DNA of 56,119 nt, counting the filler, from Sluysia triapertura (taxonomy: Eukaryota), in NCBI GenBank assembly GCA_046118255.1. It is 4 parts of 4 records of this genome, joined end to end, with 100 filler letters (N's around TTAATTAATTAA, not from the genome) between each part and the next. Parts side by side here need not be neighbours in the genome. Positions count along the whole stretch, not along the records: positions 12,749 to 27,478 come from JBJNIA010250309.1; positions 27,579 to 43,422 come from JBJNIA010217251.1; positions 43,523 to 56,119 come from JBJNIA010095997.1; 1 more part is not named here. One strand, written 5' to 3'. Below, in pieces: positions 26,046 through 52,930 of this stretch. The position numbers and the translations under genes were made by a program. Each line of letters begins with the position of its first letter. Position 1 is the stretch's first letter. The notes beneath the pieces were generated by a model. It searched no databases. It was given only the letters and a program-made list of their open reading frames with translations, and was not told the DNA's origin.

Positions 26046-26087
26046 GTGAATTCGAATACTCGTCTCAATTATTCGAGATAGAAGTGC
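26046..26087 (+). ncRNA. conserved ~40-nt two-hairpin motif, copy A (others: 35543-35584 -, 36188-36228 +, 37019-37059 -, 52535-52575 -)
   Basis: Consensus GARTnnnnnnACTCG-[stem-loop]-TRGRARTGC at fixed spacing; existence as an RNA is inferred, not shown. Confidence 0.45.
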
Positions 26088-26483
26088 TTTAAAAAGGTTG
26101 TACTGCTTTAAAGTTTGTTTTCTTAAATTCTCGTATGTAATCTAATTTAATGCTAATTTACAAAACTCAATTTGTTCGATTTTCTTTATAAACGTTTTAA
26201 TTCAACTTTAAACTCTATACTTTATAAGAAACTTTAAAACATTTTCTTCTTTAATTTCAACCTAATTCAATAATATTTATCGAGTTCTATCTCTCTCACC
26301 CTATTTTCAATCCACAGTATTTTGATAACAAATAATAGACTTTTATTTAGAATGTGACATGGGGTTATTCACTGTTGTCAATAATAAGTTTATGTAATAC
26401 ATTAAATGATTGATGATAGTATACATTTTATATCGTGAAAATTCTATTCATAATACAGTACATAATTAAATTGTAGATATATA

Positions 26484-27226
26484 CAGGTTTTTCATTTAAT
26501 TTAATCCTTTAATAACTAACATAAAAATTGTTAGGAAAAAATAAAGATAAAAATTATACTTTAATAATTATTAAAATATTCATTCCATTAAAAAAAGATG
26601 GTAAAATAAAAAATAAAAATTTCTTTAATTGAAAAGGACTTTCTCAAAGGCTTTGGTCAAAAATTTCTTCATATGCGTAAAATATGCTGTATAATTTTCA
26701 CTTGGTATATCAAAACATGAAGAAAAAATGCTAATTTTTAGTTCTTCTGTTCTGCTATTTTTAGATTTAATCGAATTTTTCCATTTTGAATGAACAATTT
26801 GAAAACCAATTTCTTCTAGTGGAAGAATCAAATCAGCACATTGTTTTCTTTTTTCAATACTAGCTTCTGCACTTCGACCTTGTAGAAATACGCTTAAAAC
26901 AATTAATGTTCAAGTTCGAAGATAGTTTTTCCTTTATTCTTTCCAATGTTATTGAAACATCATCTTCAATGATACTTTTTTATAATTTTTTTCATTCTCT
27001 AGATGCTCGAGTGCCATGTTTGTAAGTTCTTCCATCCTTTTTAAAAACACTAATTACAGAAGATACTGTTCTAGAATTTATATTAAAATCTAGAGATATT
27101 TCCATTATTGTTTTTCCGTTTTCAAACCTTCGACAGATGTCGTATCTAATTTCATTATTAACTGCTGCGTTTTTCATTTATAACTTATAGCCTAAAAATC
27201 CGAATTAAATTAAATGAAAAATCCTA
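26484..27226 (-). mobile_element. internally deleted IS630/Tc1-type DNA transposon
   Basis: Imperfect TIRs (CAGGTTTTTCATTTAATTT / AAATTAAATGAAAAATCCT) flanked by TA; N-terminal HTH ORF 26992-27177 and C-terminal SKWKNSIK...TEELK..I...F..I; most of the DDE core is missing. Confidence 0.8.
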
Positions 27227-27659
27227 TAATAAAACAATATAATATACTGTGACAATTTTAATAATAGTATAATACATAAAAGTAGTAAATTATCAGACAA
27301 TATTGGATTATAAACTATCAGTAAGATTATTATCCTATTAGATTGTAAACTATTAATATTTTCAGTTTGAATCTGAATTGTGATGTTAGTTTTTAATTTT
27401 ATATTATTGTTGGGGTAAAAGGCCTAAAAAGTGCCAAGTAGTATAATTGAATATATTGAAAATGAAATTGTTAGACGGNNNNNNNNNNNNNNNNNNNNNN
27501 NNNNNNNNNNNNNNNNNNNNNNTTAATTAATTAANNNNNNNNNNNNNNNNNNNNNNNNNNNNNNNNNNNNNNNNNNNNTAAAATATTTATTCAGTTGTGA
27601 ATTAAACGTTATAATAAATAAAAATGTAAAAAATCTGTAAATATTTTATTCTTTGAAAA

Positions 27660-27756
27660 ATCCTCGTATAAGGCGCATCGATGTATAAGGTGCATGTGCC
27701 AATTTTTCAAAATTTCTATGTAAAAGGGTGCACCTTATGCGCTGGAAATTACGGTA
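27660..27756. mobile_element. pogo/Tigger-like terminus
   Basis: TATAAGGCGCA/TATAAGGTGCA subterminal repeats and end GTGCACCTTATGCGCTGGAAATTACGG-TA. Confidence 0.55.
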
Positions 27757-50095: not shown

Positions 50096-50455
50096 CATAA
50101 TCAACAAAGAAAAGAACTAAAAACAATTTTATTTAAAGGAATTAAGTTAAAAGAATTTTATTAAGCTTGTTTAGAAATTTCAAAGTTTGAAAGAAAAGAT
50201 TATGTTGAAGGAACAAAAGAATTTATGCATTTTTTTTATTTNNNNNNNNNNNNNNNNNNNNNNNNNNNNNNNNNNNNNNNNNNNNNNNNNNNNNNNNNNN
50301 NNNNNNNNNNNNNNNNNNNNNNNNNNNNNNNNNNNNNNNNNNNNNNNNNNNNNNNNNNNNNNNNNNNNNNNNNNNNNNNNNNNNNNNNNNNNNNNTATAA
50401 AATCATTATTATCGTCATTTTAGTAACCAAGACCATCAATTTTAGTAGTATAATG

Positions 50456-50600
50456 TGTCACCAGTCGACAGTAATTCAATTAAATTAAATCAACATATCG
50501 TATAAACTGTCGACTGATGACAGTTGCTGAGTGTGAGGCATCACCATCAGCATACTAATGCTAGTATTTCGTTAGTATATTTGATTGGACGTCTAATCAA
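50456..50600. repeat. four consecutive inverted repeats/hairpins
   Basis: 50456-72/50506-22 (17 bp, one mismatch); 50525-52; 50552-78; 50581-600. Confidence 0.85.
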
Positions 50601-50698
50601 TCATATTGTTCTACATTCTTTTTTTCGTTTTAACTCTACGTCCAATCTAAAGCAAAAAAATCAATAAAAATAATTAGTTTAAATTATTTTAAAAAAAT

Positions 50699-51870
50699 TT
50701 GTTTTGGCAAAAATTCAAAAATTGTAAAGAAACTAAATCTTCTTACTACAACATGATGGAATCGATTTTAGTAAAAATAATTGAAAATAATAATCAAATA
50801 AAGTCATCATCGTCTTTAAGCAATATCACTTTAGTTTATTTTCTTGACTTCAACAATCATAATCCATCTTCAATAATAGCAGTAAATTCTGCTCGAATGA
50901 GTATAAAAATTCGCTACAATAAATTCAATTTTGAATATTTATCGAAATTATTTATTATCTTATGGAGTTATTTTAAAGAGACTCGTAAATACAGATAGTA
51001 GTATTCATACAAATTATTTTTATGATCAATCATAATAGTACCTTTTATCAAAATGTTTCTGACAAAATTATAAACAAAATTCTAAGTGTCATGTCTTCAC
51101 TGAGAAACCTTTAGAATTTCATGAACATAACTTAAATTTCAGACTACTATAATCAATGCCGTTCGTGTTATATATAAATCCTTTAATTATAACAAATAAG
51201 ATTTCACATGTTAGGCAATTATATGGACCATTAAGCATCCAAGGTCAAACAGAAACAATTTATGACATCCAAAACGTTTTCGTCAGAAACATTAATCTCA
51301 TTGATCCATACCATGAAATGATAGACAAATATATAAGTATGCCATCATCTAAGTTATCAAGTAATGCAATCGAATTAGAAATTCTCACTTAAGTCATTTG
51401 GCCAACTATGTAAAAAATTAAATATAATGTATAAAAGAATTCAAATCTTTCAACCGCAATTCGATGTTATCATTAAAAGAAATCAAAAGAATGAATCTAA
51501 TGCAAGTATCAAAGAAGATACGTCACTAAACCGATGTCTATTAGTCCAAATTCGAATTCGGTATCACATTTCCGTTCAGCACAATGTCTCTCCCATACTA
51601 ATGAACTATGTGCATGCTCAAAATTTGGTACAAGCTGCAGATTCTACTACGACATTAAAGAAATTAACCATGATAGATTTCCTCATGCAAACACTGAATT
51701 TCAAACTAGCACGAACCTTTCAATCGTCAAGAATCAAATAAAATACCATATTCCACCGAATACTGTTATAAACAATTTAATATTCGAGGAAACTTTGGAT
51801 TGCTGACCTGGTGACATGTATAAGTTTCGATCAGTGCCCTGCAGACGTAGAAGAATTTATATCATAAAAT
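50699..51870 (+). pseudogene. fragmented ORF of unknown type with a Cys-rich tail
   Basis: Four consecutive same-strand ORF fragments; QCLSHTNELCACSKFGTSC near the end. Confidence 0.35.
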
Positions 51871-52930
51871 ATAATTATTAAATTGTTGCATCAAAAAAAT
51901 AAATTAATGTTTTGTCGTGATCTTTATTATTTTGTTTTCAACAAATTGTGTCAATTAAACAAGTTAAATTTAATTTATTTATCCAGTTATAATAATAAAA
52001 AAATGTTTCAATCTAATATTCGTGAAACTCTATAACATTTATAAATTCCAAATCGATAAACTCATGTTCATAATATACAACTAAAATTTGAATATTTATT
52101 ACAAAAAATGGTATAAAAGGAAAGAATAATTTTATTCAAACCAAGTCATAAGTTAGTTTTGAGAATTGATTAACTTAATTCACAAGTGGTTCGATTTAAT
52201 TTACTGATCTTAAGTGACTCGATTCAACAATTCAACGAACAGTTACATTGGTTTTTTGCAAAAGCATTCAATTCCAAATTTAAAAGAGATTTCGGACTAT
52301 TTATTGTTGGTAAGTGATTTCCATTGCCTTTTTTTATAAACTTTAATATTATTAAAATTAAAACTGCGTGTTTTTTCTTTTTGTCGATTTATAAAAGAAT
52401 AAATAAACTATTTGAGTTGAATTTTGTTATAATCAAGATGAGAGCGCCCCAAAAAACTATAAGATATAGTATACATATTCTAAATTGGGAATCAATTGAG
52501 AAAGATTATTTTGAATAAACTTCAATATTTATTTGCATTTCCATTCCCTGTCATAGGAACGAGTATCCGAACTCAGACCGATACACTAAATAAATATTAA
52601 TTGAACTAGGAGCTCAGGCGAATACTAACAAATAATAAGTGAAGACATTGAAGAGATTTATTGAGAATTGATAAAGGACGAGAATTTATCGTAAGGAAAA
52701 GTAGAAACGTTAAAAATAGTAACCTTTTTGCAGAATTTGTATTAAACACTTAATTGTTTACGTTTACTGTTAGTACGAGAGCATAGAGTAAAAAAAGCGA
52801 CTAAAACATACAGAGCTTTACGCAGAATAATAACTAAATGTAGTAAATTTTCTAAGTTTCGATAAAGTTAATAATTAATAAAATAAAAAATCTAACAATA
52901 ATTATAATTATAATAATAATAATAATAATA

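Follow-up and report, generated by a model that had tools for sequence, protein, structure and literature searches.

A fixed-length motif of two predicted hairpins and a tail, in five divergent copies in Sluysia triapertura: a candidate RNA signal of retroelements

The stretch of DNA analysed here, called the window below, is 56,119 nucleotides (nt) long, filler included, and joins four parts of four records of the Sluysia triapertura genome (GenBank assembly GCA_046118255.1); it has 25% G+C and contains AAT microsatellites and assembly gaps. Within it lie five divergent copies, A to E, of a sequence of about 40 nt that the original prediction took for a new cis-acting RNA of retroelements, and that our analysis shows to be a real, undescribed, high-copy structured motif. 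Copies A (26048..26087) and B (36190..36228) lie on the + strand, and C (35543..35582), D (37019..37058) and E (52535..52574) on the - strand; all five strings that had been claimed are present in the window on the strands given, with the GART word that starts each of them 1–2 nt off the earlier coordinates. B is the most divergent copy, and E is nearest to D (82.5% identity in the motif, with weak similarity in the flanks). A covariance model built from the five copies gives them 46–59 bits (A 59.1, B 46.3, C 52.9, D 54.5 and E 54.3); the next best match in the window has 10.7 bits, and this search of the window found no sixth copy. A strict pattern had no match in 300 block-wise dinucleotide shuffles, and a relaxed pattern with the hairpin had one (with 2 mismatches) in 40; both patterns were written from the five copies themselves, but the margin is large.

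A partial copy at 35199–35229 (+) was considered as a sixth and rejected, as its 12.7 bits fall within the range of best scores from 25 shuffled windows (11.4–19.3), and the idea of facing pairs (B/D and 35199/C) was dropped along with it, the score being not above chance. As an observation in its own right, 35199–35245 holds a 12-nt exact match to the start of A and then a tail-like word, and overlaps a hairpin of 9–10 base pairs (bp). Two stand-alone words shaped like the first hairpin of the motif, without the second hairpin or the tail, lie at 14625–14637 and 50899–50912.

In the numbering used here, which follows the strand read by the original prediction (the sense strand below), positions 1–14 form hairpin 1, with four pairs and a loop of 5–6 nt (5 nt in B), G15 follows, positions 16–31 form hairpin 2, and positions 32–40 are a purine-rich tail of 9 nt, URGRARURC. 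The fixed length that had been claimed is confirmed: four copies are 40 nt and B is 39 nt, and every copy has a hairpin 2 of exactly 16 nt. Stem 1 can pair in a four-pair hairpin, but it has an A·C mismatch in A and C and is weaker than had been claimed. Stem 2, as predicted, keeps its pairing while its letters change, with changes on both sides in four of its six pairs, in the outer part of the stem; 86% of the cells of hairpin 2 pair, as against 37–57% in slid controls. Its covariation score was reached by 5 of 500 shuffles and its pair count by 20 of 500, in a test on five related sequences only, whose relatedness inflates the score; the covariation is therefore support, not proof. RNAalifold draws both hairpins on either strand and adds a G15·U32 pair on the sense strand; in D the two hairpins together are the minimum-energy fold on that strand.

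The flanks are poorly conserved, as had been stated: over the ten pairs of copies the mean identity is 65% in the motif (45–82.5%) versus 36% in the 40 nt upstream and 38% in the 40 nt downstream. Fourteen of the 40 motif columns are invariant in the five copies, and 20 anchor columns are 85% identical, the remaining 20 being 46% identical. Alignment of the flanks is significant only for D and E (p 0.01–0.05) and not for the other nine pairs; D and E also have a 12-nt word in common 45–57 nt downstream (p about 0.01).

Contigs of one public sequencing run (507 records) were mapped at 80% likeness on 35400–36400, which holds copies C and B; the depths given here are summed contig depths and not copy numbers. 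On C the depth is 30,348 at motif position 29, its peak, and 4,650–6,791 in hairpin 1; around C it is 327 at 7–9 nt past the tail and 191 at 6–13 nt before the start. Contigs from C's own locus have a depth of about 10–11, and other patches of 35400–36400 reach 1,000–1,700. Because the depth falls to 190–330 within about 10 nt on either side, the motif is common to far more contexts than its flanks are. Its 3' half is carried by more than 100 distinct contigs, and at position 29 a base that pairs with C18 is carried by 101 contigs (29,657 of the depth of 30,348, or 98%), so the mismatch of copy C at pair 18:29 is private and the 16-nt register holds. Over copy B the depth is 22–53 with one bin empty, which we do not take as absence. 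Among the contig ends listed, at least 65 contigs diverge 5–6 nt past C's tail, where agreement is low (0.52–0.56), at least 45 diverge 3 nt before the start (agreement 0.75) and at least 23 inside loop 1. Past the tail, 9–11 contigs continue for at least 36 nt, and one shares 126 nt of flank. Other contigs share the flanks of C in the region 35400..35680 (-), whose left limit is the edge of the mapped stretch; 35620–35650 is covered by 13–29 contigs, and four of the eight contigs listed end at 35680. The low depth just before the start may in part reflect decay of copy C itself. The motif is thus an island common to many contexts, and there is a mild hint that its tail side is the more variable one.

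The original prediction also proposed a pseudoknot between loop 1 and the tail. All five of its pairs (4–8 with 32–36) form in B and D, but only four form in A and E and two in C; over the five copies 20 of 25 cells pair, with one double change, in B. If this pseudoknot were the functional fold, blocking a 5'-3' exonuclease or gating an adjacent poly(A) signal in line with the nuclease resistance or polyadenylation control that the prediction proposed, one might point to pairs 4:36, 5:35 and 6:34, where 14 of 15 cells pair and B has a double change that turns U-A into C-G, and to the AATAAA directly after D and E. However, the double change carries little weight in a copy with as many differences from the rest as B; only two of the five copies have AATAAA next to them, and it lies outside the fold; and C has just two of the five pairs. 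The C-like contigs, in which variants were listed down to 10% of depth, vary at positions 3, 5 and 7 (in 24%, 38% and 29% of depth, respectively) and have no variant at or above that limit at position 6 or in the tail. For the U-to-C variant at position 5 (38%), no compensating change at 35 is among those listed, although one could lie under the 10% limit, and A is retained at position 6, opposite the invariant G34, in contigs that run through the loop and so are a biased sample. The loop–tail pseudoknot is unproven and not universal, and as the functional fold of the motif we consider it improbable.

Several observations bear on which strand is used, with the limit that all tests of strand and of signal words were picked after the data were seen. 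Folding energies on the sense and opposite strands, respectively, are -7.7 and -6.0 kcal/mol for B, -8.8 and -4.0 for D, and -9.4 and -4.3 for E. The invariant G15·U32 is a wobble pair on the sense strand only, and there every copy offers C12 a G to pair with, either at position 3 (in B, D and E) or at position 37 (in A, B and C), which hints at two alternative folds. CTATA is found within 80 nt upstream of three of the five copies (background 8%). The putative TATA-like words are CTATA 21 nt upstream of A (26027..26031, +), CTATATAT 18 nt upstream of B (36172..36179, +) and CTATATAT 73 nt upstream of C (35648..35655, -), the last two being where they had been reported. AATAAA follows within 12 nt in two of the five (background 2%), which are the related copies D and E; it stands, as had been noted, 1 nt past each of them, at 37012..37017 (-) and 52528..52533 (-). 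TGT-type start words lie within 85 nt upstream of all five (background 41%). On balance, with the evidence for the opposite strand (below) included, the sense strand is modestly favoured.

The motif could instead be a module of double-stranded DNA, a protein-binding site or promoter in the leaders of repeats, in which case the covariation would be a by-product of a pyrimidine/purine palindrome. Such a module would suit the TATA-like words upstream of three of the five copies, the fixed spacing and the weak folding of the motif (below), and the wobble evidence picks neither strand clearly. On the other hand, at three positions a change in one arm is matched in the other, and the base that the family has at 29 keeps the pair, neither of which a sequence-reading protein would need, and the distance to the TATA-like word ranges from 18 to 73 nt. 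We give this explanation little probability.

A third explanation, and the main rival to an RNA signal, is that the motif is the right end of a Helentron/HLE2 rolling-circle transposon, with hairpin 1 as the subterminal palindrome and hairpin 2 as the terminal stem-loop; the Rep-helicase would recognise both in the form of single-stranded DNA. In the available parts of PMC4067079 and PMC11417382, Helentrons have a palindromic subterminal inverted repeat (subTIR) of 12–15 bp located 38–60 bp from the end and a palindrome of 5–10 bp located 8–35 bp from it, and according to the former source subTIRs stay alike between families that are less than 70% identical. The motif resembles the right ends of these Helentron/HINE (HLE2) elements, as anatomy only, in having a palindromic hairpin 1 of 13–14 nt that starts 45–46 nt before the main contig break, then a 16-nt stem-loop that ends 14–15 nt before it and a 9-nt tail, at distances within the ranges published there. 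In a comparison by eye on the opposite strand, hairpin 1 of B agrees in 9 of 9 letters with part of the subTIR of HINE-Mo-5, and that of D in 7 of 7 letters with part of that of HINE-Mo-2 (Table S2 of PMC4067079); the word TRGRACT is present in two of the five copies, against a background of 0.21 per kilobase. What the motif lacks is the inverted partner: a search of the whole window that allowed up to 2 mismatches over 13–14 nt gave none on the same strand upstream of any of the five copies, and no convincing inverted partner for any part of the motif was found within 12 kilobases. The Helentron explanation fails its defining test for this reason. In addition, TT, as expected at the sharp T|T boundary of such an end, follows only two of the five copies, family sequence runs past C's tail in the 9–11 contigs mentioned above (for 126 nt in one of them), D and E are alike 45–57 nt past their tails, and no Rep or helicase match was found by Pfam in 69 frames. 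We regard this explanation as unlikely.

Comparison with known structured RNAs bears on a fourth possibility, that the motif is a new class of self-cleaving ribozyme of about 40 nt, present at high copy in mobile elements and trimming the RNA of its carrier, with the two stacked hairpins and the purine-rich tail forming the active site. The core words of known elements, as we know them, were sought on ten strands (both strands of the five copies, the motif plus 60 nt on each side). The hammerhead core consists of CUGANGA and GAAA around stem II, and its words are in none of the ten strands. Ribozymes like that of hepatitis delta virus (HDV) fold into a nested double pseudoknot whose P3 stem encloses the L3 word; an L3-like word is in one of the ten strands, but there is no P3 around the conserved RCUCGU and no Rfam match. 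The twister word is in none of the ten and a loose pistol word is in two of them, in the flanks, again with no Rfam match. The hairpin ribozyme has a loop A (N^GUC opposite AGAA, with flanking helices) and a loop B; the loop B word is in none of the ten, and loop-A-like words in A and C were rejected, as the helices around them are two positions out of register and the second consists of one pair. The iron-responsive element, in which a bulged C lies below a 5-bp stem that carries a CAGUGN loop, is alike in its 16-nt geometry, but CAGUGN is in none of the ten strands and this candidate was rejected too. The core word of the histone stem-loop is absent from the copies or present only as an isolated loose word.

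The original prediction had listed a match to an existing Rfam family as something that would refute it, and no Rfam 15 family covers the motif. At E≤1 over the whole window there were two matches, neither on a copy, and local scans of all five copies at E≤10 gave four, with a best E of 4.4; the lone match that overlaps a copy is to a structure-free long non-coding RNA model, at 12.7 bits against a cut-off of 48. The earlier statement that the motif does not match hammerhead, HDV, pistol or twister cores is thus upheld by both the word search and Rfam.

Retroelement ribozymes are well documented: the portions of PMC6765202 used here describe hammerheads in Penelope-like elements and retrozymes and HDV-like ribozymes in R2 and L1Tc, and the available part of PMC8501958 a twister ribozyme in Schistosoma. 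Like these, the motif would be a small conserved RNA island repeated across the genome inside mobile elements, but none of their core words or Rfam models matches it. Ribozyme cores of 31–35 nt exist, and the twister-sister or lantern ribozyme has an internal loop GCUC^AA opposite GC(U/C)AG (PMC11620745, in part). The motif is of similar size to the latter and has an RCUC word next to a stem whose opposite strand is rich in purines; unlike that ribozyme as described there, it has C-G and not C-A at the cleavage step in all five copies, and the partner strand is URGRA and not GC(U/C)AG. The word GCHAG is in none of the ten strands. With unpaired bases that do not vary, a fixed length and conservation as an island from family to family, the motif does have the look of ribozymes in repeats. 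However, no known ribozyme core (hammerhead, twister, hairpin loop B or twister-sister) and no Rfam match was found in it, neither C nor the C-like contigs (position 6 without a variant at ≥10%) keep the sole candidate tertiary helix intact, and the folding is marginal, so that self-cleavage is in our estimate quite improbable.

Lastly, hairpin 1 might be a decayed T-arm of a tRNA (box B), the carriers being Helenus-like tRNA-derived terminal repeats or short interspersed elements. Loop 1 of A resembles what we take to be the T-loop consensus, and B has an A-box-like word with one mismatch. Against this, the five copies A to E have 3, 5, 5, 3 and 3 mismatches of 11 to box B and 4, 1, 4, 2 and 3 to the A box, the latter being within background for four copies, and ARAGORN found no tRNA genes. 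Helenus (TRIMp3) keeps GGTTC, according to the part of PMC10886601 consulted, and this word is absent from all five copies. By these sequence comparisons the T-arm explanation seems largely refuted, and we hold it to be extremely improbable.

Searches beyond the window gave no credible homologue in collections of viruses, metagenomes and prokaryotes, which hold little animal DNA, so that spread among animals was barely addressed. One pattern scan of viral contigs had no match and another scan had six, with variable spacing; a pattern scan of prokaryote genomes had none. In metagenomes there were 29 pattern matches, about the number expected by chance on a rough estimate, and the four outer pairs of hairpin 2 are intact in none of them. 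The best of them (37.3 bits, three identical loci) lies between the exons of an apparent eukaryotic gene and has an A·A mismatch, and the next (31.9 bits) has no hairpin 2; both were rejected. Selection by the pattern inflates the E-values of these loci, and we count them as chance. The motif is described nowhere in the literature searched, including by its words of 8–9 letters; subscription papers, Repbase reports and most supplements lay outside that search.

Since length, pairing and unpaired bases are kept while stem letters and flanks drift, the motif appears to be a folded single strand that is read by its shape and a few bases. We tentatively propose, with somewhat less than even confidence, that it is a protein-read RNA signal in a terminal or leader repeat of a group of retroelements. 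Hairpin 1 (G1–C14) would stack flush on hairpin 2, which would be closed by the invariant G15·U32 wobble, and the single-stranded tail URGRARURC would then be held at a fixed distance, beside hairpin 1. The variable stem of hairpin 2 would serve as a ruler that places the tail, and the reader of the invariant bases would be a protein, either the element's own Gag or reverse transcriptase or an RNA-binding factor of the host. The job might be that of the R-region structures of retroviruses and Ty1, namely to mark the element's RNA for 3'-end formation, packaging or reverse transcription. The strand, the choice of RNA over DNA, the stacking, the reading by a protein, the class of carrier and the job are all things that we infer, and the candidate classes of carrier (long terminal repeat (LTR), Penelope-like or other) are not established.

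Among published systems, to judge from the available parts of PMC2664473, PMC3601003 and PMC3681743, the motif is like the R-region stem-loops of retroviral and Metaviridae LTRs and the 5' pseudoknot of Ty1: a short structure, better conserved than the rest of the repeat around it and close to TATA-like words and AATAAA, whose pairing is kept as the letters change. It is unlike them, as described there, in its fixed length and its 14 invariant bases across families that are 36–38% alike in their flanks, and in that LTR ends, target duplication and primer site are not demonstrated for it. The ENE triple-helix elements of LTR retrotransposons, to judge from part of PMC12501189, are likewise structured retroelement cis-elements near the poly(A) end; unlike these, no copy of the motif has a U tract, and hence it has no U-rich internal loop.

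A number of observations weigh against the RNA signal proposed here. Folding is weak (z-scores +0.4, +0.4, -0.4, -1.8 and -2.2), and in folds of the isolated 40-mer hairpin 1 has a pairing probability near zero for A, B and C. Energy favours the opposite strand in C, and slightly in A, where the two are about equal; an alternative helix (11–14 with 35–38) pairs in 19 of 20 cells on the opposite strand versus 14 of 20 on the sense strand. The TGT words read as ACA-type end words on the opposite strand in all five copies (background 41%), and AATAAA lies within 45 nt downstream on that strand in A, D and E (background 12%). The mild asymmetry between contig ends on the tail side and on the start side would also suit the end of an element, and nothing in the analysis tells folded RNA from folded single-stranded DNA. 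As to the carrier, candidate LTR ends and their target duplications do no better than chance, the best score for TGT..ACA plus duplication at the copies being reached by 25–97% of 300 random positions; a Pfam scan of the 69 frames near the copies and elsewhere in the window found no gag, pol, reverse transcriptase or integrase, and no primer-binding site or polypurine tract was seen by eye in the flanks of any copy.

The LTR R-region that the original prediction envisaged therefore stands in part: the structured motif is common to several repeat families, but the view of their carriers as LTRs is not established, the ends being at chance level. The candidates are 36551–37127 for D, with a 6-bp duplication, and one for C with a 5-bp duplication, which are matched by 25% and 83% of random positions, respectively; when the start was limited to 100 nt upstream, the score of D was reached by 3% and that of C by 15% of random positions, and A, B and E had no candidate. 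CTATA (three of five copies) and adjacent AATAAA (two of five), at the distances searched, never occur together in one copy. Solo LTRs would likewise be without primer site, polypurine tract and gag or pol, and for these an LTR carrier is plausible. A common start of reading frames downstream of A, B and C was not upheld by alignment, and a 5' splice site at the start of the motif, which would suit A and B but not D and E, was also rejected.

The window contains a number of other features. Two exons of a sarcosine dehydrogenase gene lie at 54444–55239 (-) and show that the host is an animal; their best named matches are 58–74% identical and come from many phyla. At about 32820–33700 (+) there is a frame-broken, apparently intron-less piece of eIF3a (PF22591, E 3.5e-10 at 33346–33513), which looks like a captured or retroposed fragment of a host gene. 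Decayed frames at about 39650–42150 (+) have no Pfam match; by our reading of an RPD..DVK word, they may belong to a non-LTR element with a restriction-like endonuclease. A Tc1/mariner-type helix-turn-helix fragment lies at 26995–27177 (-), about 900 nt from copy A (PF25787, E 4e-4, below the cut-off). A short repeat with a tRNA-like word, in which ARAGORN finds no tRNA, is present in at least two and probably three places (25639–25769, 4892–5028 and 27402–27478). A long hairpin at 50452–50524 (+), with a weak mir-250 match (E 0.34), lies upstream of broken frames at 51153–51806 (+) that include a Cys-rich finger-like stretch; the Cys-rich frame at 51501–51803 has no homologue at E≤0.01 among 36 candidates. 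Three pairs of inverted repeats of 140–300 nt with 69–80% identity (1180–1477/19281–19549, 8147–8373/12334–12580 and 7420–7752/9079–9461) are probably relics of DNA transposons, and a 312-codon open frame at 5893–6831 (-) has no Pfam match.

To our knowledge, apart from AATAAA and a few bases at their ends, the terminal repeats of mobile elements seldom have conserved sequence in common between families. A 40-base island of fixed geometry that recurs in many contigs with differing flanks points to a signal that is under strong selection and undescribed. If the motif self-cleaves it would be a new class of ribozyme, and if it is the end of a rolling-circle element it would make a useful but ordinary annotation. 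It is small enough for direct testing, its many natural variants are a ready data set for covariation, and it could also serve as a marker for sorting the many repeats that are as yet unassigned.

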